Shown one piece after another: positions 3,787 through 22,243 of a DNA stretch of 23,245 nucleotides. Under the pieces are notes generated by a model. It did no database searches. It worked only from the letters and a program-made list of their open reading frames with translations, and was not told the DNA's origin. This DNA is from a virus (lineage: Duplodnaviria; Heunggongvirae; Uroviricota; Caudoviricetes). The stretch is from the IMG/VR virus record IMGVR_UViG_2718217709_000004; one strand, 5' to 3'. The position numbers and the translations under genes were made by a program. The first letter of the stretch is position 1, and the number at the start of each line of letters is the position of its first letter.

Positions 3787-3840
3787 TAAGTAATATGCAG
3801 GCGGCGCAGTGCGTCGCCTCTGACTGAAAGGAGTTTCCTG

Positions 3841-4206: not shown

Positions 4207-4370
4207 TCACGGTTGTGTGCTTTGAGCACATAGAAGACTTTGTGGCAGATATTGCCGTTATTTTTAACTGGTCGCCCGCCGAAATCTTCATGATGACGCC
4301 CGGCGAAGTGGTTAGCTGGCGTGAGCGGGCGGCACTTCGCAGCGGGAATGCAGACAATGAAGACTCTTGA
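3841..4370 (+). CDS. E+E' frameshift product (programmed -1 frameshift)
   Basis: Slippery heptamer T TTT TTG at 4152-4158 in the E frame; the -1 frame stays open to 4370 (same frame as track ORF 4134..4370) and ends overlapping the T start. This is the conserved chaperone frameshift arrangement. Confidence 0.65.
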
Positions 4371-7164: not shown

Positions 7165-7176
7165 GGAGTCATGGCC

Positions 7177-7665
7177 ATGATGATGATCTACGGCATGTTT
7201 GTTTTTGAGCTGCGCACGCTGCCGCATCAGCAGTTACAGCAAAACAAAAGCTGGCGGCATGTGAAAAATGAACGCGTTAACCGTTCAGCAAGCTGGCAGT
7301 ATATCGGTGCAGGTGATGATCGCATCGTTCTTTCTGGTGTGCTTTATCCTGAAATTACAGGTGGCGAAGTGTCGCTGTCGCTGCTGACCACGCAGGCGTA
7401 TACAGGACGACCCTGGCCTTTGATTGATGGCGTCGGGCAGATTTACGGCATGTATGTCCTGACCGGAACGAACACGACCCGTTCCGAGTTTGATCGCTAC
7501 GGTAAGGCGAAAAAGATAGAATTTTCACTGACCCTTGAACGCTGTGATGAGGATTTGCGGGAGCGCCTGCAATCCTCATCGTTCAGCGATATGCTGTCCG
7601 GCTTCAAAGATAAAGTGACATCATCCCTTAACAGCGCGGCCAGTTCAGTTAAAGGGCTGTTCTGA
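7177..7665 (+). CDS. U: tail protein gpU-like
   Basis: Motifs VLSGVLYPEITGG and WPLIDG...IYGMYV parallel P2 gpU. Start chosen at the second or third ATG (7177) for spacing from the GAGGAG RBS at 7163-7168. Confidence 0.8.
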   Translation: MMMIYGMFVFELRTLPHQQLQQNKSWRHVKNERVNRSASWQYIGAGDDRIVLSGVLYPEITGGEVSLSLLTTQAYTGRPWPLIDGVGQIYGMYVLTGTNTTRSEFDRYGKAKKIEFSLTLERCDEDLRERLQSSSFSDMLSGFKDKVTSSLNSAASSVKGLF

Positions 7666-7682
7666 TTTAATGCTGGCCACTC

Positions 7683-7827: not shown

Positions 7828-8391
7828 ATGCTGAATAATAGAGATATGAATATTAATGAACTTAAAGACTGTATTCACTATGAAGTAATCGGTAGCGAGC
7901 GTCCTTTCTCCTGGCGAAAGGCAATTGTTCGCGCAATAAAACATAGAAGACTTCGTTATTTATTTTGGTGGCGCATAGCCAAATACCTTTTTGATAAAGG
8001 CGGATACTGCCGGAAGATTGCGGGGAAAATAGAACGTTTCATTCTTGATAAATATAATGTAACAGTCCCTTTAACTGTAAATATAGGGAAAGGCTTTGAT
8101 ATTTCTTATCTCAACAGTGTTGTTATCGGTCACAAAGTAACAATCGGTGAAAATTGTTCAATAAAACCGGGGGTAACTATTGGGCTACGTGGTGATTTTA
8201 ATGATATGGATATTGTTATAGGACATAATGTGACCATTGGTTGTAATGCCACCATTCTTGGTGGCAAAGTGCGTATAGGAAACAATGTCACAATAGGTGC
8301 TCATGCATTGGTATTGCATGATATTCCTGATGATTCAACATTCATCACTAAATTTCAGTCTGAAGTTATCTGCTCGTCCTCCCGCACATAA
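7828..8391 (+). CDS. hexapeptide-repeat (left-handed beta-helix) acetyltransferase, serine acetyltransferase/WcaB-like; cargo gene
   Basis: Repeated [LIV]-G-x-x-x-x hexads ([21 protein letters not shown]...[34 protein letters not shown]) and an N-terminal [13 protein letters not shown] segment typical of this acetyltransferase class. The region 7680-8400 is markedly AT-rich against GC-rich phage flanks. Start codon uncertain (7828 or 7846). Confidence 0.75.
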
Positions 8392-8972
8392 CCCTGATTC
8401 ATCAGCTCTGGCCATACGATATCCGGAGCTGTACTGGTGTCAATTCTACTCACTAATACTCTGTATTTTCTCCAGGAATCCAGTTGTGAATTTTCCTCGT
8501 TTGTTGCTATTTCAAGATTAACTGCATCCTGCAGAATTGCGATGTTATCTGTTGCCTCCTGGATCAACCTTGCCTTTTTCTCTTCCGCTTCCCGTATCCG
8601 AAACAGCTTTTCTGCTTCCTCATCCTTCACCCAGGATACGCCGTCCCACTTCTGATATTCCCCTGCTGGCGACAACCAGGTGACATTCTCTGGTAGCGGT
8701 CCGGGTTCAGAAATAAACAACGCGTCCCCCGATGCCACGTCATAGACCGTTTTACCACGATGGTCTTCAACAATATTCCACGATTCATTTTCACTGTTAA
8801 AAATTGCCACAAAGCCAGCAGGAATTTCCGGTGGGGCGATATCTGTAGAATTAGCTGGCAGCCCTGTATGAGGTGGAATATATGCGTCACCTTCACCAAT
8901 AAACTCATTAGTTCCGGCCAGCAGGTTATAAATTTTTACAGTACGTGATTGTTCACTCATTCTGAATGCCAT
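8355..8972 (-). CDS. G: tail fibre assembly chaperone (P2 gpG / Tfa-like)
   Basis: 205-aa ORF directly downstream of the tail fibre gene with the C-terminal [23 protein letters not shown] signature. Its last ~12 codons overlap the acetyltransferase gene in antisense. Confidence 0.8.
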
Positions 8973-11629
8973 TATGCAAGCCTCACAATATAATTAAATG
9001 CGATGTTTTTAACGGTGTTTTCCGCGTTACCAGCAGCGTTAACGGTGATGGTATGTCCATGTGAACCAATCGCAACAGAGTGCGTATGAGCGCCAATACC
9101 AACAGTGTGTGCATGTGCCCCAGCACTTGTAGCGGTACCTGATACTGAGTGGGTATGTGCGCCAGAAGAAGGCACAGTTCCATTCCCCACCACCGTGCCA
9201 CTTGATGCACCATCCAGCCAGTCGAAATTCATACCGCCACTGTTTGGTCTCCTTAATGGAACGGTATGAGTATGTGCGCCAGCACTATTTGCAGTACCAG
9301 ATACATTGTGGGTATGTGCACCTGTGTTATTCGTTGATTTAGTACCGTAATCAAACGAAGATGTGGTTTTCGTACCCAAATCCGTATTGGATGCGCTGGC
9401 GCTGTGGGTGTGCGATTTAATGCCATCCTGTTCCAGAGACAATACGTCCCGACCACTGGCGGGTTTGCCCTTGATTGTCCAGCCACGCATATCCGGGATC
9501 ACGCCTGACGGATAAGCGGCTGCAAGTTTCGGGTATGCAGATTTGTCAAAAGTCTGTCCCTGCATCAGGGCGTAACCAGACGGCACAGTATCTGATGGCC
9601 ACGGCAGCGGAACACCTGGCGGAAACGCTTCAATATTTGCCGAGCCGTCAAATTTTACGCCGTTAATTGTCCTTGCCGTTTTCAGCTTTGTTGCTGTAGC
9701 AGCATTGCCGGATAGTTCGCCTGAAAGACCACCGCTGAATGTCTGTTTCGCCGCCCATGTCTGAGCTTCGTCGATAATTGGCACACGTCTTGTCGTAATC
9801 GTGCGGCTTCCCGGATTTCCTGAAATGCGAACCATAAAAAAGCGGTAATTCGCTTTACTTACAGTGCTGCGCCATACATGCATTGAGCGCCCCGTACCAG
9901 AATCATCACTCGGACCAACTGCGATGTTTATCAGGTTGCCATCAATGACGCCCCAGTCCATACCGTCGGGAATATTGGTCATGTTATCAAGCCGAACGGT
10001 TATCAGACTGCCCGGCACAAAATCGTAGGTCTGCCAGTCCAGGCTGGTGAGTTTTGCCACTGCGCCACCGATACCCAGATTCAGGGGAAGTGAATAAGAT
10101 GTGTAAACTTCCCGCCATTCGCTCCACGAGCTGCCGGTATAAACGCGCTCAAACGTGCGACCTTTAAGGGTTGCACCTGTTCCGGCGGTTGTATAACGTT
10201 GCCATACGTTAACGCCATCAAAGCGCCTCAGCACTTCCAGAATACCGAGTACAGTCACGCCGTTTCCGTCCAGTATTGGACCATTGGTCGCTTTACCTGT
10301 AACGCTGTAAATACCTGGTGAGGTTACATCATTCAAATCACCGTCGTAATAACGGCTTTCTGACTGGTAGCCCACTCTTGACCACGGCTCCCATTGTGGG
10401 TTCTCTGCATCCCACGAGGCCGAAAGACAGCGAACATAAACATTTCCACGGCGGGTCGTGTAACGCTGCGTTCGCGAGTAACCACCACCTTCAAGAACTT
10501 CAAGGAGTCCCTGACCATAACTTCCTTCTTCCGGATAGTTGCGGTCAAATGAAGCGATTGAGCCACTACTGTTTCGCCATAAACCAAGATGCTCTGCGCC
10601 TCCGAGCGTGTTCAGGTCAATGGTTGTGCTCAGGGGGCGTGTTGCAGACTGAACCTGACGCCAGTAACTCCACGGACCGTCTGAACCATTCCATGTGCCA
10701 GAAAGGTTGCGCATATAAACATTGCCTGTTCTGGTGGTGTAACGCTGCATTCCTGCAAAATTACCGCCATTGAATACCTCCAGTACACCGACTGCACCGT
10801 CTTCAGGGAAATTTTTAGCAGCCGTCGCGTTAGTGGATGTAGCTTTAGACCAGACGCCAAGATAAGCCTTAACGGGACCAAATGTATTCAAGTCAGCATC
10901 AAGCGGCATTTCGCCATTGTTTTTCATAAACGTCAGGCTGGTAACGCCAACATTGTCCAGAAAAGCGCCCTTATCTGGAATATCGTCACCGTTCTGGTCT
11001 TTCTGCATACGTTTTTCAGCATTGTCATAGGCTGCTTTTACTGCCTTTGGCGTTGCCGCCAGCTCTTCACTGGTGCTGTTTGTTGCGCTACTTAACTGAG
11101 TAAAACCTTTTTCTGTCAGCGTGGCGTCAGGATGGCGGCGGGATTGCTCATGCTCTGCGATTTTGTCATCGACGTAATCCTGCGTCGCCATCACTGTGCT
11201 GGCATCAATACTCAGCTCAACGGACGCTACGTTGCTGACAGTAATAACCATGCGGCAGGTCTGCGCGCGCCCGGAGCCTTCAGCGAGTTCAGGCTTATAG
11301 CTTTCCGCCATGTTAGCGACCGCAATCAGTGTTCCGGCATCGTCATACAGACCCAGCTCACGCATCCAGAAGCCGCCCACTTCTGGCGGTACAACCAGTT
11401 CAGCCACGATATAGTTTTTATTCTTGTTATCCACGCTGACTTTATTCAGAGCGTGACGCCAGACCTCATGCACCAGTTTCGTCTGACCGGCATCCGGCAC
11501 CGGCAATTTGCCATTACCGTCACCCACGGCCATTGCAGACAGAGTTACTTTTTTCCCGCCGGGGACAGTGGCGGCTGCCAGCTTCGCGGCTCCGGCAGTA
11601 GTGATAGCGGTTTTAAATTTCGTGCTCAT
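8972..11629 (-). CDS. H: tail fibre protein (P2 gpH-like)
   Basis: 885-aa ORF with a conserved P2-type N-terminal region, three internal repeat units (QRYTTRxGNVY...W..W) and a C-terminal region with iterated GAHTHxV HxH motifs, followed by a Tfa gene. Confidence 0.85.
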
Positions 11630-11639
11630 TGTTTCTCAC

Positions 11640-12167
11640 TTATCCGGGATAAACAGTAATAACATCACCATCACAGACCACACCGCCTGTATACAGATAG
11701 CCGGGAATGTCCTGGATAATGTTCAGGCCGATAAGGTGGCGACTTGCGGGTTTGGCATCGGCAATCAGCCGTTCCATTTCCAGATACATTTCCTCGGTCA
11801 CACCACTGTCCAGCGTGCCAACATCAACCTTGAATGTTCCGGGTTCGCCGTCGAACTCCCACCACTCAGACACGCGAATGAGGTATCCCAGCGGCTCAAT
11901 GGCCCGGCGCAGTGCGCTGATGGTCCCTTTGTGTCGGTGTATCAGCCATGCATCACGAATAACCTGTCGCTTTGTCTCTTCCGGCCAGTTGCGATCCCAG
12001 CGGTCAACGGAAAATGCCCAGGCGAGATAAGGCAGCAGATGCACCGGGCAGGTGTCCGGTGACCACAGCGTGTTGAGGTCTACCGGGATGTTTGTAATGC
12101 GCGCTCCGACAGCTTCGGCGCAACGCATGAAATTGCTGGCTGATGGTGGTAACAGTGAATTACTCAT
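11640..12167 (-). CDS. I: baseplate assembly protein gpI-like
   Basis: 175 aa from MSNSLLPP; the ATG overlaps the stop of the upstream J fragment. Size and position match gpI. Confidence 0.8.
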   Translation of the reverse strand: MSNSLLPPSASNFMRCAEAVGARITNIPVDLNTLWSPDTCPVHLLPYLAWAFSVDRWDRNWPEETKRQVIRDAWLIHRHKGTISALRRAIEPLGYLIRVSEWWEFDGEPGTFKVDVGTLDSGVTEEMYLEMERLIADAKPASRHLIGLNIIQDIPGYLYTGGVVCDGDVITVYPG

Positions 12168-12474
12168 TACGCCCACCTTCGCTGATGGTGAATGACTCAC
12201 AGCGCGCCGCCTGTATGTCGCTGATGGCCATATTCTGTGTGGGTTCGATTATCTCCACGCGTTGCACACCGTGCACATGCAGTGCGGCAGCAATGGCGGA
12301 CAACGCCACGTCCTGACCGATAAGCCCCTGCTCAGCCAGCCACTTCCTGAACGACGATTCAGCCGCAGCCAGAATAGGTTCGGATTCCGGGCCGGGATAA
12401 AAGTACAGTTTTGCATTCAGCCGCCATGTCACGATTCTGGCGCTCTGACGGGCATGGCGAGAGATAGTGCTCAA
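12160..12474 (-). pseudogene. J: baseplate gpJ C-terminal fragment (5'-truncated)
   Basis: Only about 100 codons remain of a ~300-aa protein (...ILAAAESSFRKWLAEQGLIGQDVALSAIAAALHVHGVQRVEIIEP...). No J N-terminus, W, V, S or R genes lie upstream. Confidence 0.7.
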
Positions 12475-12619
12475 CGTTCACGCGGGCAGCGTAAACATCC
12501 GGGTTGAAGTTCTCGGCGGCTTCACGCAGATGTACCGGGCTGATTTCGCGGCCATCAACAGTTGATCCGGAGACAGCCACGCGAAACTTTTTGCGGGATG
12601 TCTTTTTTTCATTAGCCAT
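12359..12619 (-). pseudogene. O: capsid scaffold gpO N-terminal fragment fused out of frame to the J remnant
   Basis: MANEKKTSRKKFRVAVSGSTVDGREISPVHLREAAENFNPDVYAARVNVEHY parallels the P2 gpO N-terminus; GAGGGG RBS upstream. After about 50 codons the frame runs through J-derived sequence and stops at 12359. Confidence 0.7.
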
Positions 12620-12773
12620 AGTTTTTGCCCCTCTGACTGGTTCTTCAGTCATGATGGCAAAGCGTAACAGGCTGATACAAAGGGCTTTTGTTGTAAGAAA
12701 ACGGCCAGAACAGGGGGTTAAGGAGAACGGTTTCGCGCGCGGGTAATCTTCCTGTAATTACTCAGGGGGAGCA

Positions 12774-14036
12774 ATGATTCAGGACGCTTTTGTGCGCCAG
12801 CGTGCGCGGCAACTTTACTGGCAGGGTTATCCGCCCGCAGAAATATCACGTCTGATGGGAATAAACCCGAACACGATTTATGCGTGGAAAAAACGCGACC
12901 AGTGGGATGAAACGCCCCCCGTGCAGCGTGTCACGCAGTCCATCGATGCGCGCCTCATCCAGCTTACTGAAAAACAGAATAAAACAGGCGGTGACTTTAA
13001 GGAAATAGACCTGCTGACCCGGCAGCTTAAAAAGCTGCATGATGGCCAGCCGGATGTGATGGCCGCAGGAAAGAAAGGCCGGGCGAAAAAACTTAAAAAT
13101 CATTTCACGCCGGAACAGATTGCCGCACTGCGGGAAAAAATCATCAGCAGGCTGGAGTGGCATCAGCGGGGCTGGTTTGACTCCCTGACACTTTGCAGGG
13201 AAGCCGGGATACGTAACAGGATGATCCTGAAATCCCGACAGATTGGGGCGACCTGGTATTTTGCACAGGAAGCTCTGCTGATGGCGCTGCGTGACGATGT
13301 GGCGCAACCTTACCAGCGTAACCAGATTTTTTTGTCTGCGTCGCGTCGTCAGGCGTTCCAGTTTAAAAGCATTATTCAGAAGGTCGCGGCTGAAGTTGAT
13401 GTGGAGCTGAAAGGGGGCGATAAAATCATCCTCTCCAACGGCGCAGAGCTGCATTTTCTCGGCACTTCTGCTGCGTCGGCACAGTCCTATACGGGCAATT
13501 TTTATTTTGATGAATTTTTCTGGGTCAGTCGCTTTGCTGAACTGCGCAAGGTGGCTGGCGCTATGGCAACCCTCAGCGGACTGCGGCGCACCTACTTCTC
13601 CACGCCATCCACCGAAACGCACGAGGCGTACGCCTACTGGAACGGCGACCGCTGGAACGAGAAAAAGGCCTCGCATAAACGCCAGCGTTTTTCTGTGGAC
13701 TGGAAAACGCTGCATAACGGGCTTATCTGCCCTGACCGGACTTGGCGGCAAATTGTCACGCTGGAAGATGTGGTTAATCACGGCTGGAAACACACCGATA
13801 TCGACGAAATTCGTGATGAAAACACCGAAGACGAGTTCCTCAATCTCTATATGTGTGAGTTTGTCCGCGAAGGGGAATCGGCATTTAACCTGAATATCCT
13901 GATTGGCTGCGGTGTTGACGGATACGACGACTGGAAAGACTGGAAACCTTTTGCTCCCCGCCCGATGGGGAATCGTCCGGTATGGATTGGGTATGACGCA
14001 AACGGCAGCAGTGGCAACGGCGACATGCCAGCTTGA
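12774..14036 (+). pseudogene. P: terminase large (ATPase) subunit gpP, 3'-truncated
   Basis: N-terminal two-thirds of a P2-type large terminase (MIQDAFVRQRARQLYWQGYPPAEISRLMGINPNTIYAWKKRDQWDE...). The ORF ends at 420 aa and the A gene stop is only about 110 bp away, so no portal Q or cos can follow. Confidence 0.8.
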
Positions 14037-14101
14037 TGTTGGTGGAGCCGTCGTCGATACAAATTTTCATGTCGCTTTTCCTTATGTTGATTAATTAATC
14101 G

Positions 14102-14137
14102 TTTACGGGATTCTGAAATCCCGTTTTTGCCTGTTTT
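14102..14137. repeat. hairpin-containing direct repeat, copy 1 (intergenic, P remnant / A junction)
   Basis: tttacgggattctgaaatcccgtttttgcctgtttt: 7-bp stem acgggat / atcccgt followed by a T-run, acting as a plus-strand terminator-like element. Confidence 0.6.
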
Positions 14138-14146
14138 ATGCGCGCT

Positions 14147-16969
14147 TCATATATCGCGGCGCGTTTTTTGCTCATTTACGGGATTTGTGAATCCCGTTTC
14201 TGTCTGTTTTTTGTTTCCACTGGTCAGGCCACCCCGCAGCAGGTCTGCTTTGCGGTGGGCGCGTTCAGTTGTTTCACTGATTCTCTGTGCGTGCTCTGCG
14301 TCGCGGATGGCGCGCAGCATGTCAGAAAGTACGGTAACGGGTGTTTTCATGGTGTTCTGGTCTTGCTGAAGTGTGGATGCCAGGCGTGCGGCGGCTTCAT
14401 GGTCTGATGCCCTTAGTTGTTCCAGATAGCCGGCGACCGGGTTATGGCGGATCTCCGTGCTGCTTACGCCGTGATTACGGCTCAGGCGCTGCCAGAGCTG
14501 CGTGATTCGGCTGTCCGGGCGGGTATCCGGTTTGCGTACAATTTCAAATCCCTGCGGTGCAATGATGCTGCCGTCAACGTACAGGCTGCCGCCCCGTAAC
14601 AGGTGCTGCATCTGCTGTTCACCGATATGCAGGCCGAGAGATTCGGCAGATTCCCGCCATTCTTTAGCGAGTAATTCGTGGTTATCAGGCAAAGGCCGCT
14701 GCTGTTTGCGGCTCTGTGTCCAGCTCTGCATTTCATCACTGCTGTTTTTTGCCTGTTTGTCACGCAGCGAACGCATCAGCGCCCGGCGTTCGTGCCGTTT
14801 CAGTGAGCGCATCCAGTCATCCACATCAACGCCGTCAGGAAGCTGCGGCCACAGTGCTGGCCGTTCTTCCGGCTGTTCTGTCCCGTTGTTGTCCGTTTCC
14901 TGTACACGGGGACAGTTATTGCCACGAGTCCAAGGGGCGGCAGGGCCGCCCTGAAGGTCAAAACCATTTTCGTGGGCGTTGTCTTCCGGTTCTGGTTTAC
15001 GTCTTACCAGCTTCCAGTTATCCGGATGCGTGCACACACGGGAGGATTCCCCGATGAGTGGTGACCAGATCCCGTAAATCTGTACGCTCTGTTCGCCGTA
15101 ATCGTTCAGCTCATCTGCGAGGTCGTAGGCGGTGCGAATCAGGTAGTCCTTGCGTGGAACAAGCACGCCACCCTGTTTTTCAATGTAGGTGGCAAAACAC
15201 CCGGCATCGGCGGCAGCGAGTACCGCATCCATTGCATCATCTTTCAGCCGTTGCGGGCCTTCCGGATTGCGTGCCATCTGGCTGGCAAGGCGGCGCAGTT
15301 CACGCCACACCTGACGGGAGGGGATGCCAAAGAACTGGAACTGACGGACCCGGTGAAGGCGCGCCCAGCCGATGGCGCGCTCCACGCTCTCGGCCATTGA
15401 TTTTCCGGTTTCGTGGTCAACGCGTGGCTTGCCCGTTTTCGGGTCGATGCCATCCACGGCGCGGCTGTCCAGGTTCTTTCCGATGTAGGTGGCGATGTAG
15501 CTGGTTGGTGTGCCTTTTGAGCCGTCGACATACTCCGCCTTAAAACGCGGAGTTATGTCATCGCCCAGCTCGTGGCGGTCCTCCTGAATGGCAATATCGC
15601 AGACGTGGGACACGATGGTTTCAATCTCGTCCGGATGTGCAAAGACCATCATATGCCAGTGCACAGTGCCGTCATGGTGAGGCTCCACCGTGCGGATGCC
15701 ATACCAGCGCAGGCCGTCGCGGTTCAGTTTTTTGCGGACCGCCGCAAAAAACGTGTTAACCAGGTAATCGCTGGAGTCGCGCATGGTGGCCCCGTTCCAT
15801 TTGGGGTTCGGATGACCGTTCTCCGTTGTTGCGTGGTATTTTGACGGGCAGGTGACGGTCAGAAACACCGCTCTGTCGCCACGGGCTTCGGCCAGAAGTT
15901 CCAGTCCCTTCATGGTGGCCATCATTTCTGCCTTACGGTGAACCGGGTTACTTACTCCCGCGTAATACACCGTCTCGAGATCAATCGTGAACCCGTCTTC
16001 ATTTTCCAGCATGAAACTTTTCAGGAAATCGCGTGTTTTCTCGCGCTGTGCGCGAAACTCGCTTAACGCGTCCTGGCTCAGATAGGGGGATGTTTTTCTG
16101 GAAACCAGACAGGCGGCGCGGAGTTGTTCTTCCCGCCACTCACAACGTAACAGCCACAGTTTGCGTTTCCACCATTCCGCACAGGTCAGGCGAAGGATTG
16201 CGCCCGGCAGCAGCTCCGTGTCCGGTTCGTTCCTCCGGTCTTTGTCTGTTGTCAGTGCGTCATAATGTGGAGGCATGGCGTGCAGGTGTAACGCCATGCG
16301 GGCCAGCATCTGATAAGCCTTCAGCGTTACATCCATGGTCAGCTCGCCATCAGTCGCGCCAAAGCCATCGCAGAGTTTTTCGAAGGTGCTGCTGAACATC
16401 GCCGCCGTCATGGTGGCCAGCGTCTGTATCTGGTGTTTGTTGAGCTGCGGCAGGTAAAGCAAATCATCCAGGCGTTCGCGTCCGGCAAGGGAGCGATAAC
16501 CCGGTGTCAGCCAGCGGTGGTCGGTGCGGTCCAGACGTTCGAATATTTTGCGCAGGGTTCCGCACGCGTAGCGTTCAGCCTGCCAGCTCTTGTTGCCTTT
16601 CCGGCGATCGGCTTCCTGTTTTTTGCGCAGGAAGGAGAGGTGGCGAATAAGCGGATCGCGCAGATAGGACGGCAGCAGGCGCAGCGAGGCCATGGCTTCA
16701 TCCACCGCGCCACGTGCCTGTTTTCTGGCGTCTCCTGCCAGTGTGATGGTTTTGTCCTGTTTTTCCTGTGCGTCCAGGCTTTTATTAATCAGGTTGCCCA
16801 GCGGCGTGGCGGAGAACGCCGCATCAGCCATTTCCTGGCGGCGCTCGTTCTCTGCCCGGTAGGCATCCAGCCAGGAGGAAAGCGCGGATTCAGGAGCGGG
16901 GATCCCCGTTCCTTCACGCCCCACTGCGTGGCGCGGTTGTTGCCAGTCCCTGATGTACTCTGCCGTCAT
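14147..16969 (-). CDS. A: replication initiation endonuclease gpA (rolling-circle initiator)
   Basis: 940-aa ORF with the conserved YGIRTVEPHHDGTVHWHMMVF and YIATYIGKN catalytic-region motifs of P2/186 A proteins. It is longer than P2 A, so the C-terminal extension may be junction-derived. Confidence 0.85.
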   Translation of the reverse strand: MTAEYIRDWQQPRHAVGREGTGIPAPESALSSWLDAYRAENERRQEMADAAFSATPLGNLINKSLDAQEKQDKTITLAGDARKQARGAVDEAMASLRLLPSYLRDPLIRHLSFLRKKQEADRRKGNKSWQAERYACGTLRKIFERLDRTDHRWLTPGYRSLAGRERLDDLLYLPQLNKHQIQTLATMTAAMFSSTFEKLCDGFGATDGELTMDVTLKAYQMLARMALHLHAMPPHYDALTTDKDRRNEPDTELLPGAILRLTCAEWWKRKLWLLRCEWREEQLRAACLVSRKTSPYLSQDALSEFRAQREKTRDFLKSFMLENEDGFTIDLETVYYAGVSNPVHRKAEMMATMKGLELLAEARGDRAVFLTVTCPSKYHATTENGHPNPKWNGATMRDSSDYLVNTFFAAVRKKLNRDGLRWYGIRTVEPHHDGTVHWHMMVFAHPDEIETIVSHVCDIAIQEDRHELGDDITPRFKAEYVDGSKGTPTSYIATYIGKNLDSRAVDGIDPKTGKPRVDHETGKSMAESVERAIGWARLHRVRQFQFFGIPSRQVWRELRRLASQMARNPEGPQRLKDDAMDAVLAAADAGCFATYIEKQGGVLVPRKDYLIRTAYDLADELNDYGEQSVQIYGIWSPLIGESSRVCTHPDNWKLVRRKPEPEDNAHENGFDLQGGPAAPWTRGNNCPRVQETDNNGTEQPEERPALWPQLPDGVDVDDWMRSLKRHERRALMRSLRDKQAKNSSDEMQSWTQSRKQQRPLPDNHELLAKEWRESAESLGLHIGEQQMQHLLRGGSLYVDGSIIAPQGFEIVRKPDTRPDSRITQLWQRLSRNHGVSSTEIRHNPVAGYLEQLRASDHEAAARLASTLQQDQNTMKTPVTVLSDMLRAIRDAEHAQRISETTERAHRKADLLRGGLTSGNKKQTETGFTNPVNEQKTRRDI
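14175..14210. repeat. hairpin-containing direct repeat, copy 2 (inside the 3' end of A)
   Basis: tttacgggatttgtgaatcccgtttctgtctgtttt: same stem as copy 1 with a different loop, about 29/36 nt identical. It encodes the last residues of the A ORF (TETGFTNPVNEQK). Confidence 0.6.
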
Positions 16970-16975
16970 AGTGAT

Positions 16976-17341
16976 TTACTTCGTCATGCCATTCAGGGTG
17001 TCGCGGCAGACTGTAGCCAGCCGCTGAATTTCCAGCACGGTGTCTTCTGTGTCGGCATGGCGATGTGTGATGCGGATGCTGTCGGCAATCACATCGACGA
17101 TTGCAGAGGATGGGCGCTGGTAAATGCCAATAACGGACGGGGTGCCACCTTCAATGCGGTAAAGCCTGTAATTTCCCTCGTGGCTGTCAATCATGTAGCG
17201 ACCATCAATAACAATCTTTCCGTCAGCGAGCTGCGGTACAGGCAGGGATTTCAGGTACATGTCATAACGATCACGCACGCGAGCGGCAAGATCTCGTTCT
17301 GTGTTGAGCAGGTATTCAAGAAAGTCGTTGGCGAGAATCAT
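16976..17341 (-). CDS. hypothetical early protein (121 aa) immediately upstream of A
   Basis: Intact ORF whose stop lies 6 nt before the A start; family not recognised. Confidence 0.5.
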   Translation of the reverse strand: MILANDFLEYLLNTERDLAARVRDRYDMYLKSLPVPQLADGKIVIDGRYMIDSHEGNYRLYRIEGGTPSVIGIYQRPSSAIVDVIADSIRITHRHADTEDTVLEIQRLATVCRDTLNGMTK

Positions 17342-17413
17342 TGCGGCAATCCTCTTGTTACAGATGTGCGAAGGCCTCCCGCCGCAAGGTGCAGGAAAGG
17401 CCCGGAACAGGAA

Positions 17414-17644
17414 TTAATGGAGTTTGTTTTGCTGCTGGATGAGCTGTTGAAGCTCGTGCAGATCATCCGCCAGATAGCTGAAAACAGAGGCGGAATAAAT
17501 GTTTGATAGTGCGTGGCTGCGCTCATGCAGCATATTGATGTGCATGATTTGCGCGACGCGTGATGCGCGGGAAAGTCTGTGGTTGATTTCAGTCTGGATG
17601 TGACGACGCTCCGCGATAGTGCGGTGCTGTTTGCGGTCTGCCAT
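17414..17644 (-). CDS. hypothetical small early protein (76 aa)
   Basis: AAGAGG RBS about 7 nt upstream of the ATG; charged, helix-rich sequence; preceded by a structured leader. Confidence 0.5.
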   Translation of the reverse strand: MADRKQHRTIAERRHIQTEINHRLSRASRVAQIMHINMLHERSHALSNIYSASVFSYLADDLHELQQLIQQQNKLH

Positions 17645-17819
17645 GGTGTGGCCTCTTTGCTCGGTGATAGAAATAACTCACCATCCAGAGTTGAGAATCT
17701 CGGGGTGGCGAGACGTACAGGGTTCTCAACACCGGAGAGCAAAGAATCCGGCCCGACCGAAGTCGGCCCCGTACGCCCCGCCATAATTCTGACGCGAAAA
17801 AGACGTGGCAATACAGTGC

Positions 17820-17842
17820 GCACAAAAAAACCGCTTGCGCGG
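17820..17842 (-). terminator. rho-independent terminator within the early region (minus strand)
   Basis: On the minus strand: aaccgc-gcaa-gcggtt stem-loop (GNRA-type loop) followed by a run of seven T. Confidence 0.5.
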
Positions 17843-17966
17843 TTATGCGCTTTGCTCTGTATCGGGTTGAGAATCCCGGCACCCGTTTTATGAGCTGCAG
17901 CGGAAATGTAACCTGACCGATTGAGGCATGGCAAGCGGTTTTTTTGTGTGTGCATGTTCTGGTTTC

Positions 17967-18266
17967 TTACTGGTTCAGAAAAAAATCAAAAACGTTATCG
18001 ATGCGTTGCAGCAGCTCTTGCTGCATTGCTTCCGGCGTTTCCGGTTCGCCAGGTGCCCCCAGCGTTGCGCAGAAATCAGCGATTTCATGATGGAGCGTGA
18101 GGCGAATGGCAGGAGCCGTGGTTCTGGCGTGCTCCAGCTGATCCAGCAGTGCCAGCACAGCAGACGGCGAGAGCATTGCGCGAAATGCCAGTAATTTTTG
18201 AGGCGTTGCCATTCGTTGCAGGGCAAATGCCAGTTCGCGTAGCTTCTGGTGGTTGATGGTGCTCAT
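17967..18266 (-). CDS. hypothetical early protein (99 aa)
   Basis: ORF translationally coupled to the upstream gene; family not recognised. Confidence 0.5.
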   Translation of the reverse strand: MSTINHQKLRELAFALQRMATPQKLLAFRAMLSPSAVLALLDQLEHARTTAPAIRLTLHHEIADFCATLGAPGEPETPEAMQQELLQRIDNVFDFFLNQ

Positions 18267-18529
18267 GCTCTGGCTTCCTTCAGTAGCTGGTTAAACATGT
18301 GAGTAAGTGGATTGCTACACCCGAACAGCATCGGGTTTACGTGGTAAGAAGCCTGGCCTCCTGTTTTGCGAGCGCGACCACCTGTGCTGCGGTTTGTTCT
18401 GATGACTAAGCCGCCGCGCCAAAGTCGGCGTAACTCAGCATTAATGGCTGTGGTTGGGGTATTCAGTGCTGCGGCGATCTCTCCGCCGCTACACCCCGGA
18501 TGAGTAGCGATGTAGTCCAGAATGGTCAT
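18263..18529 (-). CDS. small winged-helix-like DNA-binding protein (88 aa)
   Basis: GGEIAAALNTPTTAINAELRRLWRGGLV resembles a winged-helix recognition helix plus wing; start and stop overlap the neighbouring genes. Confidence 0.5.
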   Translation of the reverse strand: MTILDYIATHPGCSGGEIAAALNTPTTAINAELRRLWRGGLVIRTNRSTGGRARKTGGQASYHVNPMLFGCSNPLTHMFNQLLKEARA

Positions 18530-18729
18530 CTGCGTGGCTCCTGTACCTGTCGGATAAGATTCACCCGCGCCACGTTGGTGGCGCAGAAGTAAGTGCCGTC
18601 AGTGAGGTAGATGTGGTGTGCATCCTTTTCCGAACGATGTTTGTCGATAGTGGTAATCAGGCGTTCGTCGACCTCGTATTCGCGCCCTCTGGAGGTAAAG
18701 CGAACGACGGGAAAATGCTTAATTGCCAT
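18526..18729 (-). CDS. hypothetical early protein (67 aa)
   Basis: AAAGGGGG RBS upstream of MAIKHF; stop overlaps the next start. Confidence 0.5.
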   Translation of the reverse strand: MAIKHFPVVRFTSRGREYEVDERLITTIDKHRSEKDAHHIYLTDGTYFCATNVARVNLIRQVQEPRR

Positions 18730-18752
18730 TGCGCCCCCTTTGTCCAGTAACC

Positions 18753-18944
18753 CTATGCGTTAAATACGGCACATTGCGCGTCATCAATGAATACAGCTTG
18801 AGAGCGTTCTATCAGGCGGAGATTTGTCAGAAGCTCTGACTCTTTTGTGTGGTAAGGCGTTATCAGGTATTTGCCGTGCAGTTCGGCAATAATGGTGTAT
18901 TGCAGCATCATTGCTGAACCAAGAATATAAAATGCAGCGTCCAA
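18753..18944 (-). CDS. hypothetical small protein (63 aa), possibly the 3' part of a frameshifted gene
   Basis: ORF overlaps the distal part of the 19170 ORF in another frame; no clear RBS. Confidence 0.3.
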   Translation of the reverse strand: MDAAFYILGSAMMLQYTIIAELHGKYLITPYHTKESELLTNLRLIERSQAVFIDDAQCAVFNA

Positions 18945-18949
18945 TGCTG

Positions 18950-19170
18950 GACGGATTCATGGCTGCAACTGTTGACTGTGTTTTAAGAGTGTCGATTTCT
19001 TTGCTCTGTTCCTCAATAACTTTGGCTGCTTCAGAGGCGGCTATTGCGATGGTCAGTGCGTAAAGCGCTGCCATATGTTGATTATCTTTCTGGGCTGCCC
19101 TGGACAGCTTGTCTTGCTCTGCTGACACTATTTTTAATGTATTGATAATATTTTTTTCTTTTGCGTTCAT
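18950..19170 (-). CDS. hypothetical coiled-coil protein (N-terminal ~70 codons of track ORF 18784..19170)
   Basis: The N-terminal part is helical and protein-like; beyond about 18950 the same frame becomes low-complexity and overlaps the 18753..18944 ORF, suggesting a frameshift or an early natural stop. Confidence 0.3.
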
Positions 19171-19262
19171 TTTATATCTCCGTTATTTACGTGTGCGAAT
19201 ACCTCCGCGAATGCGGATAGTTTTCAGGTTTTCGGGTTTAATCTGGTGTTTTGTTTAAGCTG

Positions 19263-19376
19263 TTATTTGTCAGTAAAAAAGCGTTCAATCTTTTTTACTG
19301 AATGAATAATTCGCATAATCCCAATGGCGCAGGCCACCGAAATAATCAGAACAAGCCATGAGATAAATATACTCAT
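19263..19376 (-). CDS. small single-pass membrane peptide (37 aa)
   Basis: Hand translation gives MSIFISWLVLIISVACAIGIMRIIHSVKKIERFFTDK; the ATG overlaps the stop of the upstream gene (ATGA). Below the ORF-track size cutoff. Confidence 0.45.
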   Translation of the reverse strand: MSIFISWLVLIISVACAIGIMRIIHSVKKIERFFTDK

Positions 19377-19615
19377 GCGATATTCCCCAGCTTATACGGT
19401 TCAATGTGTTCCCCGCATTCTGCGGCACAGATCAGCTCGGAAAGTTCGTTAAGTGCATCCAGATCATCAGCGTAAAAAGCAACGTCATACAAACTCCGGA
19501 TTGCCCTGGTCAATGAGTCACGGGCTGCATGTTCAGCATGAGCGCCTGATGCACTTAAGCGAAAATAAAATCGTTCAAGTGCTTTGTTAATGAGAGTTTT
19601 ATATTCTTTGCCCAT
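19373..19615 (-). CDS. hypothetical early protein (80 aa)
   Basis: Intact ORF in the early operon; family not recognised. Confidence 0.5.
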   Translation of the reverse strand: MGKEYKTLINKALERFYFRLSASGAHAEHAARDSLTRAIRSLYDVAFYADDLDALNELSELICAAECGEHIEPYKLGNIA

Positions 19616-19626
19616 CGCAACGCCCT

Positions 19627-19905
19627 TTAATCTGCTTTCTGAATTTCAGCTTCTGAATCCATACAAATAATTTCGATATAGGGTTCATCGCCATTAACCT
19701 GACGTGCCTTTTCAGCTTCGCTAATGATTTCTCGTACGGTCTGGTACGGAAGCTCCACAGTCAGGCGCGTACCGTTCAGATAAACGTAAGTAGTTGCGTT
19801 TTTTTCGGATGGAACAACTCCGTCAATGGCTGATGCGCGTAATAACAGTTCACCGCGAAAATCAATAAAACGGATAAATACACCTTGTGCATGCTCTTTG
19901 GTCAT
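19627..19905 (-). CDS. hypothetical early protein (~92 aa)
   Basis: Start placed at MTKEHAQG (ATG 19903-19905), 10 nt after the upstream stop; the longer track ORF would overlap the preceding gene. Confidence 0.45.
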   Translation of the reverse strand: MTKEHAQGVFIRFIDFRGELLLRASAIDGVVPSEKNATTYVYLNGTRLTVELPYQTVREIISEAEKARQVNGDEPYIEIICMDSEAEIQKAD

Positions 19906-19915
19906 AAAGCACCTG

Positions 19916-20266
19916 TTATAAATCAGCCTGTTTAATAAAACTTTGCCCGCGAAGCAGACGATCAACCGTGCGAAGTGCTTCGTATAATGTGAAATCCTGC
20001 CCGAAGTGATTGTCGCCGCAGTTCAATGCAAAAATGCGGTTTCCGGTAAACGGATTGCGTGGGCATTTGTGGATCACGATTCCAGCTTTCTCAATCAGCC
20101 AGGCATGCTCGCCGATTTGTTTTACAGCGTGGCCATCCGGTGTTGCGTGCGTCTCGTTCAGGTTATAGCGACTGTTACTACGTGATGCACTGGTAGCGAC
20201 GTGGTGTACATGGCGTTCTACGCTATTACGAAATTTGGAGTATGGATTATTAGCGTTTTTTTTCAT
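19916..20266 (-). CDS. hypothetical early protein (116 aa)
   Basis: Intact ORF; family not recognised. Confidence 0.5.
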   Translation of the reverse strand: MKKNANNPYSKFRNSVERHVHHVATSASRSNSRYNLNETHATPDGHAVKQIGEHAWLIEKAGIVIHKCPRNPFTGNRIFALNCGDNHFGQDFTLYEALRTVDRLLRGQSFIKQADL

Positions 20267-20287
20267 GATGGTGCTCTGTTCATTGTT

Positions 20288-20491
20288 TTAGCTGTTAGCC
20301 AAAGCGTCTTTTAACATCGCCACAAGGTTTACTTCAGGCTTTTCCATTTTGGCGCGTTTGGGGCGGATAATAATTCGACCGTCAGCCAACATCTTTTTGC
20401 ATGTATTAAGAGGGATACCTGTTATCTCTGCATATTTCTGCAGGGATACATAGGGGGCATTCACATTGATATTGATGGTTATACCTGACAT
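20288..20491 (-). CDS. small DNA-binding protein, Cox/Apl-like (possible excisionase / switch regulator)
   Basis: 67 aa; YVSLQKYAEITGIPLNTCKKMLADGRI resembles the helix-turn-helix of P2 Cox-type proteins; second gene of the lytic-side operon. Confidence 0.45.
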   Translation of the reverse strand: MSGITININVNAPYVSLQKYAEITGIPLNTCKKMLADGRIIIRPKRAKMEKPEVNLVAMLKDALANS

Positions 20492-20507
20492 CCCACTAGC
20501 CTCCTGA

Positions 20508-20714
20508 TCAGGAAGATTTGTTTTGTTCTTTCTGGGTTAGCTCTAGGCCGCGAAGGAAGATCATGCGCGCCATGTTAGAGGATGAGCGTTGTTCTTTAGC
20601 TGCCATTTCATCAATGACGGCTCGCTCCTCGAGGGACAGCCGAAGTGCCAGTCTTGGACCTGTGGCGGTGTTACGCGGAATGCGTGATCTGGTATCGTGA
20701 AGAACTTGTTTCAT
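20508..20714 (-). CDS. ribbon-helix-helix (Arc/CopG-like) regulator, first gene of the lytic-side operon
   Basis: ALRLSLEERAVIDEMAAKEQRSSSNMARMIFLRGLE fits the beta-strand / helix / helix pattern of RHH proteins; transcribed divergently from the repressor gene. No obvious RBS. Confidence 0.5.
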   Translation of the reverse strand: MKQVLHDTRSRIPRNTATGPRLALRLSLEERAVIDEMAAKEQRSSSNMARMIFLRGLELTQKEQNKSS

Positions 20715-20756
20715 AGTGGTATATTGTGATCATCTAATAGCTCGTGAAATCATTTT

Positions 20757-20774
20757 GGTATCAAAAAAGATACC
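20757..20774. promoter_or_regulatory. palindromic candidate operator in the divergent switch region
   Basis: Perfect inverted repeat ggtatc-aaaaaa-gatacc between the divergent RHH and XRE genes; a second ggtat half-site and a tgatca palindrome lie at 20718-20732. Confidence 0.4.
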
Positions 20775-20790
20775 TGTCAAGGTTTTTTGT

Positions 20791-21195
20791 ATGAAAAATG
20801 ATATTGGTCAGCGGTTGCGTGAGGAAAGGGAAAGATTGGGACTTAGTCAAGTTGCCATGAGCGACATTGGTGGAGTCAAAAAGCTAACTCAGCTTAGATA
20901 TGAGAAAGGAGATAGCTTTCCTGATGCTGCGTATTTGGCAGCGCTGTCTCGTTTTGGCCTTGATGTTCAGTATGTTGTGTTGGGAATTCACTCACCTGAA
21001 ACTTATAACGATGATGAGCAGGAGTTGATTACTCGCTTTCGAGCAGCTTCGTTAGATGTGAAAAACGCGGTGATTGGGGCTTTAAAAGGTGCGATCAGTG
21101 AAAAGGAAACTCAGCCATCAGGACGTGAGTTAAATATTTCTGGTGGTAATAACCGTATCGCTGGTCGTGACTATAACGAAACTAAGGGTAGGTGA
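20791..21195 (+). CDS. XRE-family helix-turn-helix repressor (CI-like immunity repressor candidate)
   Basis: IGQRLREERERLGLSQVAMSDIGGVKKLTQLRYEKGDSFPDAAYLAALSRFGLDVQYVVLG is a classic Cro/CI-type HTH; divergent from the lytic operon and co-directional with int. Start taken at ATG 20791 (MKNDIGQ), possibly leaderless, rather than the upstream GTG at 20716. Confidence 0.7.
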   Translation: MKNDIGQRLREERERLGLSQVAMSDIGGVKKLTQLRYEKGDSFPDAAYLAALSRFGLDVQYVVLGIHSPETYNDDEQELITRFRAASLDVKNAVIGALKGAISEKETQPSGRELNISGGNNRIAGRDYNETKGR

Positions 21196-21210
21196 TAGTA
21201 GGGAGGTGAC

Positions 21211-21861
21211 ATGGCCGTCAACTCAAACGGTTCAAACAATCGCGTTGCTGGGCGTGATTTTCACGAAAAGAATATTCAGATAGAGCGATATGATGGTTCT
21301 CATACCGTCAATATCGCAATCCCTTCGAATAATGATGATGACGATCGCCCTTTGCTTAAGGCTCAGCGTAAGGAGCTAAATAGCTTGGTTGCTGCTATTG
21401 CAGAAGCTAGCAATACTGAAGCGTTTATTATTTGGCAAAAAGTACATGCGGAGATTGGTGTAGCTGGTATTGATGATATGACAGTAAATCAATATAAAAC
21501 AGCGGAGAGTTTTCTGCATGCAATGCTTGAGCGATGTAAAGATCATGATGCCTGTAAGGCTCTTGTAAGTTTATTACTACGTAACAGTGAAGACTGTGGA
21601 CTTCGACAAAAACTTCTGCGGTATTGCCATATCAATTTCGGTACAGGACGTTTAAACGATCTTACTCGTTCTCAGTTACAGTCTGCATTGTCGTGGTTAG
21701 AGCAACAATCGGCATCAAGCCACACAGAGAGTTCGACCTTACCAGAAGTCCGACTTCGTGCTTCAGAATTAATCCGACTTTATCCAAAAGAAATAATATT
21801 CTTTATCTGCGTAGGGGTTTTGGTAGGCGGTGTCATTTCTAGGGCGTTTTTTAATTTGTAA
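21211..21861 (+). CDS. tail-anchored membrane protein of unknown function (216 aa)
   Basis: Strong GGGAGG RBS; soluble N-terminal domain with a DDDD tract and a C-terminal hydrophobic helix IIFFICVGVLVGGVI. Its N-terminus repeats the C-terminal motif of the upstream repressor. AT-rich. Confidence 0.6.
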   Translation: MAVNSNGSNNRVAGRDFHEKNIQIERYDGSHTVNIAIPSNNDDDDRPLLKAQRKELNSLVAAIAEASNTEAFIIWQKVHAEIGVAGIDDMTVNQYKTAESFLHAMLERCKDHDACKALVSLLLRNSEDCGLRQKLLRYCHINFGTGRLNDLTRSQLQSALSWLEQQSASSHTESSTLPEVRLRASELIRLYPKEIIFFICVGVLVGGVISRAFFNL

Positions 21862-21890
21862 TCTTACTTGAGCTAAATTGAGGTAATGAT

Positions 21891-22238
21891 ATGAAAGTAA
21901 AAAAGGTTCAACTATTAGTTACTTTTTTATCTATGTTTTCTTTTTCCGCCGTCGCAATGCCTTTTAAAACTATTGAACGTGAGAGTTTCAATGGGGTATG
22001 GCCATTTAATACTGATGAGGTTCAATTACAGTGTCTTGATGGTAATCCTTATGTGATGAATTTTGACGATAATAAGTTATATGCACTTACAGGTTTGGCT
22101 CGAATAAAAGGTAAAACATTTGGTGCGTTACCGTTAGATAACAATAATCCATTTTGGCTAGATAATGATGCCGCCCCAGGGTTAAAAAAGAGCCTGGGGG
22201 ATGTCACTAAGGCTGCATTTGATTTATGTGATAAGTAA
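21891..22238 (+). CDS. secreted small protein with a Sec signal peptide, DUF2511 (YebY)-like
   Basis: N-terminal MKVKKVQLLVTFLSMFSFSAVA signal peptide, two Cys, WPF and YALTG motifs; GAGGTAA RBS. The family assignment is from memory, not a search. Confidence 0.55.
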   Translation: MKVKKVQLLVTFLSMFSFSAVAMPFKTIERESFNGVWPFNTDEVQLQCLDGNPYVMNFDDNKLYALTGLARIKGKTFGALPLDNNNPFWLDNDAAPGLKKSLGDVTKAAFDLCDK

Positions 22239-22243
22239 CTAAA

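Follow-up and report, generated by a model that had tools for sequence, protein, structure and literature searches.

A deletion scar beside the native leader, with putative ParR boxes, of a lost parMR cassette in a P88-like E. coli prophage undergoing decay

Partition loci of plasmids and the A–Q hotspot of P2-like phages

Type II parC sites consist of repeats upstream of parM. The site of plasmid R1 is divided into two parts by the promoter, and its binding protein is the ribbon-helix-helix (RHH) protein ParR, which also acts as a repressor (PMC5016525). Around a quarter of the P2-like phages of E. coli carry a putative plasmid partition system at the A–Q hotspot (Rousset et al. 2022, PMC9122126), an interval that is cos-proximal (PMC9122126). 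On ParM in P2-like phages, a one-sentence remark in that paper (PMC9122126) was all that was found in the literature.

The stretch of DNA analysed here, referred to as the window, is 23,245 nucleotides long (IMG/VR record IMGVR_UViG_2718217709_000004) and is an E. coli prophage of the P2 family, P88-like (Xuanwuvirus) and defective. Its positions 69–7670, 12441–14025, and 14024–17948 are collinear with Escherichia phage P88 (NC_026014; Xuanwuvirus, Peduoviridae) at 96.5%–97.8%. P88 is ordered A–parM–parR–small ORFs–Q–P, and the junction described below is flanked on both sides by DNA that shares 96%–98% nucleotide identity with it. The intact relatives resemble the parMRC locus of plasmid R1 in being ordered repeats–parM–parR, with the repeats lying within approximately 180 bp upstream of parM, in two sites; their ParM proteins are 46%–52% identical to plasmid ParMs, and their ParR belongs to PF10784. 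They depart from R1 in having two 16–20-bp palindromic boxes 73 bp apart rather than ten 11-bp direct iterons, and in being carried by an integrating P2-like phage, where the upstream half of the locus overlaps the 3′ end of the replication gene. The P2 A–Q (tin/old) hotspot occupies the same place, between replication gene A and portal gene Q and near cos, and alternative cargos are also seen here; unlike the hotspot as described, however, the interval is mostly deleted in the window, and the cassette border falls within the A open reading frame (ORF).

The reading preferred here, to which a probability of roughly 0.6 is given, is a joint one: a deletion scar in a P88-like prophage, next to repeats that are the native leader of parMR and hold putative ParR boxes.

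The terminase–parM deletion junction

The features on the terminase side of the locus, together with gene A, are as follows.

12774..14036, + strand: terminase large subunit (gpP) ORF of 420 aa, in which codons 1–417 of the native 583 occupy 12774..14025
14024..14025, no strand: deletion junction, at which the terminase and parM flanks share 2 bp ('CA') of microhomology, placed by BLAST and by three-way alignment with both P88 flanks
14026..14036, + strand: ORF tail derived from the junction (…M-P-A-stop), antisense of parM, from sequence and alignment
14147..16969, − strand: replication gene A, an intact ORF of 940 aa (Phage_GPA, E = 1.7e-129; 96.5% nucleotide identity to P88)

An earlier note on this DNA had described a terminase ORF that stops at 420 aa without its C-terminus and a gene A that ends some 110 bp away on the opposite strand, and both observations hold. 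The ORF keeps 417 of 583 codons; Pfam matches Terminase_5 and Terminase_6N in it, and Terminase_6C, the RNaseH-like nuclease domain at residues 405–566 of the 583-aa P88 gpP, is absent. The ORF list places the gap between terminase and A at 14037–14146, which is 110 nt. The two genes do not, however, meet through the repeats, as had been proposed: the breakpoint is at 14024/14025, inside parM codon 16 and 75 nt to the left of the first repeat. BLAST boundaries at the junction are 1–426 and 425–1101, for a query starting at window position 13600. To the left, window 12441–14025 corresponds to P88 14483–12900 at 97.8% identity, and alignment to both P88 flanks joins P88 12900 to P88 8902 with the 2-bp 'CA' overlap. 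The flanks are thus collinear with far-apart P88 positions and abut with only 2 bp of homology, and the same junction is present in 8 of 5,426 complete E. coli genomes. The junction is an ordinary deletion scar, left in this decaying P88-like E. coli prophage by a single event of illegitimate recombination, which fused the terminase gene P at codon 417 with parM at codon 16.

The deletion measures approximately 4.0 kb (3,997 bp) against P88, a length to be read with the proviso that the cargo of the true ancestor may differ slightly downstream of parR. Relative to P88, the genes removed are parM from codon 16, parR, the small ORFs gp19–22, portal gene Q, and the 3′ end of P. The portal is therefore missing, as the earlier note had it, along with the remaining A–Q interval; the claim that the post-A cargo locus is gone stands for most of that locus, with the exception of 221 bp of the parMR cassette (14026–14246), including 15 parM codons. 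Loss of cos, whose presumed place in P88 (10863–11353) is inside the deleted interval, is accepted on synteny and the literature only, because the P2 cos 19-mer has no match in P88 or the window with up to five mismatches allowed. Nucleotide comparison finds no match in the window to P88 8903–12899, and with Terminase_6C also absent, the packaging module is incomplete and the element defective; since both Q and the terminase nuclease domain are deleted, it is unable to package.

The repeats and the left end of the parMR cassette

Between the junction and the conserved part of A lie the following features.

14026..14246, − strand: surviving left end of the parMR cassette, 221 bp, comprising a 176-bp parC-like leader at 14071–14246, equivalent to P88 8680–8855, and 45 nt of parM
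14026..14070, − strand: parM remnant, the first 15 codons (MKICIDDGSTNIKLA), matching StbA_N over residues 1–17 (E = 2.6e-4) and identical to the 5′ end of P88 parM
14071..14146, − strand: native A–parM intergenic region with the ribosome-binding site AAGGAAAAG, from alignments
14099..14140, no strand: repeat copy near parM, with the palindrome ACGGGATT-CTGA-AATCCCGT at 14105–14124; candidate ParR box 2, 52 nt upstream of the parM ATG
14141..14163, no strand: GC-rich inverted repeat (CGCGC…GCGCG) between the boxes, spanning the A stop; P88 lineage only
14172..14213, no strand: repeat copy within the 3′ end of A, with the palindrome ACGGGATT-TGTG-AATCCCGT at 14178–14197; candidate ParR box 1, 125 nt upstream of the parM ATG

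The window contains one family of 42-nt direct repeats, whose two copies (14099–14140 and 14172–14213) are 81% identical and lie 73 nt apart. Each copy forms a hairpin with an 8-bp stem, and the loops differ (CTGA and TGTG). The earlier description of two direct repeats as hairpins with a shared stem and different loops was accurate in all but length, given there as about 36 nt. It was also right that one copy is intergenic while the other encodes the C-terminal end of A: translation of 14172–14213 gives …KQTETGFTNPVNEQ… close to the A C-terminus. In the window, the pattern ACGGGATT-N4-AATCCCGT is present exactly two times, where 0.09 occurrences are expected, a count reached by none of 100 shuffles. 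The search for further copies that the earlier note had suggested turned up no additional copy in either the window or P88, and the cargo region of P88 contained no other repeat arrays. The inverted repeat at 14141–14163 folds at −10.5 kcal/mol with a z-score of −0.8, which is not significant.

The position of the repeats, 75–190 nt from a real deletion junction, might suggest that they are a recombination scar or duplication left by the terminase–A deletion. This has next to no probability, given that intact P88 and 154 of 154 IMG/VR relatives that keep this stretch have both copies, equally spaced and in the same surroundings, and that the breakpoint maps elsewhere. In P88 and these relatives, parM continues normally past the repeats and is full length, whereas in the window only its first 15 codons remain and parR is deleted; P88 gp17 is a full ParM (StbA_N and ParM_N) and gp18 is ParR/StbB (PF10784, E = 1.6e-24). 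The hairpin repeats are the native leader of the lost parM/parR cassette, not a scar. Native repeats had been expected by the earlier note to appear in intact relatives as one copy followed by tin/old-like genes; the repeats and the A C-terminus are indeed native, but it is two copies that are found, followed by parM and parR.

Two P88-like prophages with other cargo (Dam and an AAA ATPase in one, three unrelated ORFs in the other) place the border of the cassette. Homology to them ends at P88 8679/8680, which corresponds to window position ~14246, and neither has hairpins like the repeats at its left border; the repeats are therefore part of the parMR cassette rather than of A. Of the A protein, a core of approximately 908 aa is conserved, and the cassette supplies a tail of 32 aa and the stop. 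The A frame runs on into the parMR leader as far as the first stop, which is why one repeat copy 'encodes' the A C-terminus. Since the border of the cargo lies inside the A ORF, the C-terminal tail of A (the last 7–39 residues) varies with cargo, A being 940 aa long with parMR and 947 and 915 aa long with the two other cargos. The length of 940 aa, previously described as unusual, is native and identical in P88, only the last 32 codons coming from the cassette.

The same border bears on the idea that the hairpins are recombination signals for exchange of cargo cassettes at the A–Q hotspot, in the manner of integron attC hairpins. They do stand exactly at the left edge of a cassette that can be swapped, and the break in homology is 33 nt upstream of the first copy. 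At the left edge of the other cassettes in this hotspot, however, such hairpins are missing, no copy is present to the right of the cassette or elsewhere in P88, and the boxes follow the subtype of ParR; cassette exchange is accordingly a very improbable role for them.

A further candidate was considered and rejected, in which the intergenic copy provides an alternative A C-terminus through a +1 frameshift at an A6 run. Read in the +1 frame, which is open, the protein would terminate in …KQAKTGFQNPVND*. An open stretch of 11 codons is not improbable, though, and other lineages have no such coding relation; nor are the 31-nt spacers after the two copies related, which leaves both a frameshift and a 73-bp tandem duplication unsupported.

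Candidate ParR boxes

The two palindromes share the core CGGG-N10-CCCG, in two copies 73 bp apart (about seven helical turns), with in-phase A-tracts. Pairs of GGG-N10-CCC at −125 to −131 and at −52 to −59 relative to parM, with a spacing of 72–73 bp, are found at parMR loci of E. coli, Plesiomonas, and Hafnia, among which ParM identity is 62%–63%, ParR identity is 39%–43%, and the surrounding DNA has diverged. In Hafnia, both boxes lie within a different upstream ORF, yet they stand at −128 and −55 from parM. An ATTAAT(T/C)AA element in the A–parM intergenic region is likewise conserved in Plesiomonas and Hafnia. The background of GGG-N10-CCC is 0.22 motifs per kb, with one chance pair at the box spacing in 346 kb. 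One extra pair with 73-bp spacing, at 5193/5266 of L205, was set aside as unrelated GC-rich sequence.

The box pair accompanies every locus whose ParR begins with TRR(I/V)SFYL and none of 29 loci with another ParR N-terminal motif, a co-occurrence that represents three independent lineages only. The genome scan used N-terminal patterns only and returned few intermediate relatives; in IMG/VR, the Hafnia ParM query gave no loci and the Plesiomonas ParM query gave one. ParR proteins of a second subfamily (NRKISFYL) go with an inverted repeat of their own, 19 bp long, in this position, as co-evolution of the repeats with ParR would predict. Because the pair occurs upstream of parM only with a TRR(I/V)SFYL ParR, the repeats are most likely ParR boxes of a parC-like centromere/operator, as judged from these sequence comparisons.

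Under this reading, ParR, as a ribbon-helix-helix adaptor, would bind both palindromes, and the site would be a parC-like centromere that doubles as an operator in the parM promoter region. Box-bound ParR would, in the intact phage, couple the DNA of the phage to filaments of ParM and would place parMR under autoregulation. No consensus sigma-70 promoter was found in the repeat region. Characterised parC sites comprise 4–10 tandem iterons, whereas the boxes detectable here number only two and are palindromic. As a parallel, the region upstream of a plasmid ParM of 52% identity was rejected, since it has T-rich iterons of about 10 bp and not palindromes; the partial resemblance between GTTTTTGTCTGT and GTTTTTGCCTGT in that comparison is on the other strand with respect to parM and was put down to low-complexity coincidence.

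Alternative roles of the hairpins in RNA

The hairpins could instead be intrinsic terminators on the + strand of the window (antisense to A and parM). As such, they would stop read-through of the convergent late P–Q operon before it reached the early replication operon and, in the remnant, would end the truncated terminase transcript. A T-rich tract follows each hairpin on the + strand only (TTTTTGCCTGTTTT and TTCTGTCTGTTTTT), with TTTTTG after 14105–14124 and a weaker TTCTGT after 14178–14197; a third GC hairpin followed by TTTTTT lies between the two copies; and a terminator scan flagged both copies, with hairpin energies of −10.2 kcal/mol. The scan count, however, is not above that of shuffles (2 found versus 1.0 ± 1.0), and the hairpins are missing from P88-like phages with other cargo, though the same insulation would be needed there. 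In Plesiomonas and Hafnia, the stems are only 3–4 bp with 10-nt loops and no T-run, and fold z-scores are insignificant or modest. Furthermore, a frequent variant in the P88 lineage (GCGGGATT…AATCCTGT; 27 of 154 loci, in two loop variants) cuts the antisense hairpin to −3.3 kcal/mol. Termination is thus an unlikely function for the repeats.

More doubtful still is a role in the sense A–parM mRNA, where the hairpins would stabilise the 3′ end of the A message, serve as RNase processing sites, or modulate parM translation. The sense-strand folds are more stable than shuffles (z-scores of −2.3 and −4.6), and common variants of the intergenic copy retain G·U pairs on the sense strand, but variants of the copy within A favour the opposite strand, so that the variants point to neither strand consistently, and compensatory double changes are absent. 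Stem covariation among the 154 close relatives has no discriminating power, comprising single-sided transitions only, on opposite strands in the two copies. Plesiomonas and Hafnia have kept the outer GGG/CCC and the 72–73-bp spacing but not the stems, a pattern that fits recognition as DNA better than RNA folding.

Implications for the remnant

As ParR boxes, the two palindromes would be an orphan relic in the window, which lacks both ParM and ParR. It is conceivable, though improbable, that P88-type parMR uses a minimal two-box centromere in the 3′ end of A and that the orphan copy is still active, by titrating ParR or by parC-type incompatibility. If so, orphan boxes would act against incoming P88-like phages or plasmids that share the ParR specificity, and the relic would be kept for function rather than by neglect.

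As a whole, the locus is ordinary prophage decay and not a new element. What might be annotated as a 'terminase domain-containing' pseudogene and an ORF-free 110 nt beside A is a deletion scar and an orphan partition-cassette leader, and the gain is mainly one of correct annotation. Two by-products are a candidate centromere/operator for P2-like parMR systems (CGGG-N10-CCCG, twice), tied to a TRR(I/V)SFYL ParR, and the placing of the A–Q cargo hotspot border inside the A reading frame.

Cryptic P2-like prophages decay through stepwise deletion, with loss of packaging and head genes and short microhomology, as here, and their decay states are nested among related strains. The window shares with P88 the 940-aa A, the two repeats, the start of parM, and an unusual orientation of the FI–U tail genes relative to H–G; an inversion of these tail genes peculiar to the remnant was considered and rejected because intact P88 is arranged alike. 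It differs from P88 in having a second deletion (O'-'J) and a different tail-fibre C-terminus, in carrying an acetyltransferase in place of the invertase and invertible segment, and at its immunity/integrase end. Gene A and the tail sheath, tube, and tape-measure genes are still present in the window as open reading frames.

The truncated terminase and the hairpin repeats

The region of the terminase large-subunit gene (P) and the replication gene (A) contains the following ORFs, taken from the ORF list, and direct repeats, recovered by repeat search:

12774-14036, plus strand: 420-aa ORF, truncated terminase
14147-16969, minus strand: 940-aa ORF, A
14099-14140 and 14172-14213: direct repeats of 42 nt each, 81% identical and 73 nt apart

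The two ORFs are separated by a gap of 110 nt. Pfam assigns a gpP-type HTH (Terminase_5) and an ATPase domain (Terminase_6N) to the 420-aa ORF, in which the same domain search finds no nuclease domain, and identifies the 940-aa ORF as a Phage_GPA replication endonuclease. Both repeats contain the palindrome ACGGGATT-N4-AATCCCGT, with differing loops; the window has two occurrences where 0.09 would be expected, a count that none of 100 shuffles attained. One copy is intergenic, and the other codes for …KQTETGFTNPVNEQ… close to the end of A. The earlier note, made from the sequence alone, had described the sequence correctly.

A deletion in a P88-like prophage

Megablast searches of phage and E. 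coli collections show each half of the region aligning to a separate place in P88-like phages (Xuanwuvirus, Peduoviridae), the match changing at query position 425/426. Window 12441-14025 corresponds to 14483-12900 of Escherichia phage P88 (NC_026014) at 97.8%, and window 14024-17948 to P88 8902-4978 at 96.5%. In P88, A (940 aa) is followed by parM, parR, four small ORFs, the portal gene Q, and finally terminase P (583 aa); gp17 is a complete ParM and gp18 a ParR/StbB protein (PF10784). An inversion of the window's tail genes was rejected, since P88 natively has the same arrangement.

In a three-way alignment the breakpoint falls at window 14024/14025, where the two flanks share a 2-bp microhomology, 'CA'. 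The terminase frame keeps 417 native codons and then reads M-P-A-stop; the opposite strand retains parM codons 1-15 (MKICIDDGSTNIKLA, 14070→14026), which match StbA_N. Relative to P88, 3,997 bp (8903-12899) are missing, comprising parM from codon 16, parR, gp19-22, Q, and the final 166 codons of P, in which nearly all of the RNaseH-like nuclease domain (residues 405-566) is encoded. The A-Q interval is a cos-proximal hotspot in P2-like phages (PMC9122126), and because this interval is deleted, cos has almost certainly been lost as well; cos was not located by direct search. The event is a microhomology deletion of the ordinary kind, and the P88-like prophage that bears it is cryptic. The loss of the terminase C-terminus and Q proposed in the earlier note is borne out, but the repeats do not lie at the breakpoint; the post-A cargo that the note described as gone has indeed lost parR and parM from codon 16, although 15 parM codons and the cassette leader survive.

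The repeats belong to the cargo cassette

Both repeat copies lie at the same places in P88 and are present in 154/154 IMG/VR relatives keeping this stretch (159 loci with the A C-terminus or ParM were fetched, one of which has a deletion junction identical to that of the window). These intact relatives refute the proposal that the repeats originated as a scar or duplication.

The P88-like prophages ETEC4088 and ATCC 43896 carry other cargo after A: the former has a Dam methylase and an AAA ATPase, the latter three unrelated ORFs that lie on the opposite strand. Their homology to P88 ends at P88 8679/8680 and 8663, respectively, just upstream of the first repeat, and the hairpins are absent from both. 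The cassette border therefore lies at approximately window 14246, which makes A's final 32 codons, both repeats, and the parM start all cassette DNA. The border of the A-Q hotspot falls inside the A frame, the C-terminal residues of A being set by the resident cassette (6200-6303 in the compared locus L164 and 6184-6225 in L165, versus window 14147-14246), and A is 940, 947, or 915 aa long according to cargo. What had appeared to be an unusually long A owes its length mostly to a native core of ~908 aa, with only the last 32 codons encoded by the cassette. Absence of the hairpins from other cassettes also makes a role as cassette-exchange signals unlikely. The two repeats are the leader, now orphaned, of cargo of a known kind, a parMR partition cassette at the A-Q hotspot.

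Candidate ParR boxes upstream of parM

The post-A position also carries parM-parR in other genera, namely in P2-like prophages of Plesiomonas, Hafnia, and Serratia, as well as on a sequencing-run contig with an Enterobacter ludwigii-type ParM and on one IMG/VR contig. Identity to P88 in Plesiomonas and Hafnia is 62-63% for ParM and 39-43% for ParR, and although the upstream DNA is largely diverged, two GGG-N10-CCC motifs are kept. Relative to the parM ATG, these lie at -131/-59 in Plesiomonas (72 bp), -128/-55 in Hafnia (73 bp), and -125/-52 in P88 (73 bp); in Hafnia, both are inside a different upstream ORF, not A. Across 38 loci compared, the pair is found wherever ParR starts …TRR(I/V)SFYL… and in 0/29 loci with other ParR N-terminal motifs. 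The TRR(I/V)SFYL segment is presumed to be the DNA-reading β-strand of a ribbon-helix-helix (RHH) fold. The motif background is 0.22 per kb, and 346 kb contain just a single unrelated pair with this spacing.

Type II parC consists of repeats upstream of parM that are bound by RHH ParR, which is also a repressor; in R1, they form two groups flanking the promoter (PMC5016525). Given this precedent, and because the pair tracks ParR subtype across diverged loci, the two hairpin repeats are most likely boxes for ParR within a parC-like centromere/operator. As candidates they are a small, testable addition to knowledge; none of the findings would surprise specialists.

Could the hairpins instead be antisense terminators, acting on the window's plus strand? 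A T-rich tract follows each on that strand and a terminator scan flags both; however, the scan count is not above that of shuffles, the elements are missing from phages with other cargo, stems and T-runs are unconserved in Plesiomonas and Hafnia, and a common P88-lineage variant cuts the antisense hairpin to -3.3 kcal/mol, all of which weakens this explanation. Action of the hairpins in sense-strand RNA finds no consistent support.

Returning to the candidate ParR boxes, an NRKISFYL ParR subgroup has a 19-bp inverted repeat in place of the GGG-N10-CCC pair at the same position, probably the centromere/operator of that subtype:

L169 (Serratia locus) 4882-4947, upstream of parM: AGGAACGAAATAGAAAAAT, 28-nt spacer, reverse complement; perfect in L169, imperfect in loci L203 and L207

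Stepwise decay of the prophage

The identical P'-parM' junction is present in 8/5,426 complete E. coli genomes. The element in NZ_LR883050, the only one of the eight inspected, adjoins Gly-Cys-Leu tRNA genes downstream of pgsA. Its acetyltransferase gene is split by an IS1 with a 9-bp TCATTCTTG duplication; the window lacks this IS1 and has the target as a single copy (8039-8047). The window carries a second deletion junction:

~12441-12459, in ORF 12359-12652, minus strand: the N-terminal end of scaffold gene O (~60 codons) joined to the 3' end of baseplate gene J (~300 nt)

This deletion of ~2.3 kb removed the 5' part of J, W, V', N', and the 3' part of O, all still in NZ_LR883050, and its microhomology is only short and imperfect (CGCTCTG versus CGCT-TG). 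Because the O-J junction occurs in only 2/8 genomes sharing the terminase-parM junction, the terminase-parM deletion must have come first, with later decay stepwise.

Chimeric ORFs in the protein database combine ParM fragments with other phage domains, e.g., tail protein I and scaffold GPO (database proteins P0007, P0009, P0011, P0012, and P0014), which suggests that other decaying P88-like prophages have undergone independent deletions ending in parM.

Other parts of the window and other assemblies

At the place taken in P88 by a DNA invertase with an invertible tail-fibre segment, the window has an intact hexapeptide-repeat acetyltransferase gene (WcaB/DapH-like; 7828-8391, plus strand), flanked by tail gene U and the gene for tail-fibre assembly. 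The 885-aa tail fibre (8972-11629, minus strand) has a tail-collar N-terminus, fibre repeats, and a Collar domain. Similarity to P88 (~80%) is confined to the N-terminal part of the fibre (window 11025-12459), and a different module forms the receptor-binding end. The early/immunity end (~17949-23245), where P88 carries C and int, is mosaic, with patches of 85-91% and no match to P88 beyond ~20218. Going by how the identical locus in E. coli is annotated, this end encodes an HTH protein, a 216-aa protein, a DUF2511 protein, and an integrase cut off by the window end. A 413-aa ORF (823-2064, minus strand) overlaps the equivalent of P88 tail gene D (824-1924; 366 aa in P88); because the identical locus in E. 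coli is annotated with a shorter VgrG/Pvc8-family CDS and a pseudogene fragment, D may start elsewhere and may not be intact.

Enterobacterial-type sequence also occurs in assemblies labelled Firmicutes, namely L171 (a Vagococcus sp. WN89Y contig with a P88-like region, its ParM 98% identical to that of the E. coli phage) and L196 (a Lachnospiraceae MAG contig, parM 51% identical), most likely through contamination or mis-binning. A complete P88-like prophage region with A, parM, parR, Q, P, O, and N is integrated in the 272-kb IncHI2 Salmonella plasmid pS2122_1 (L163; NZ_CP110658), and its ParM is 100% identical to that of P88.
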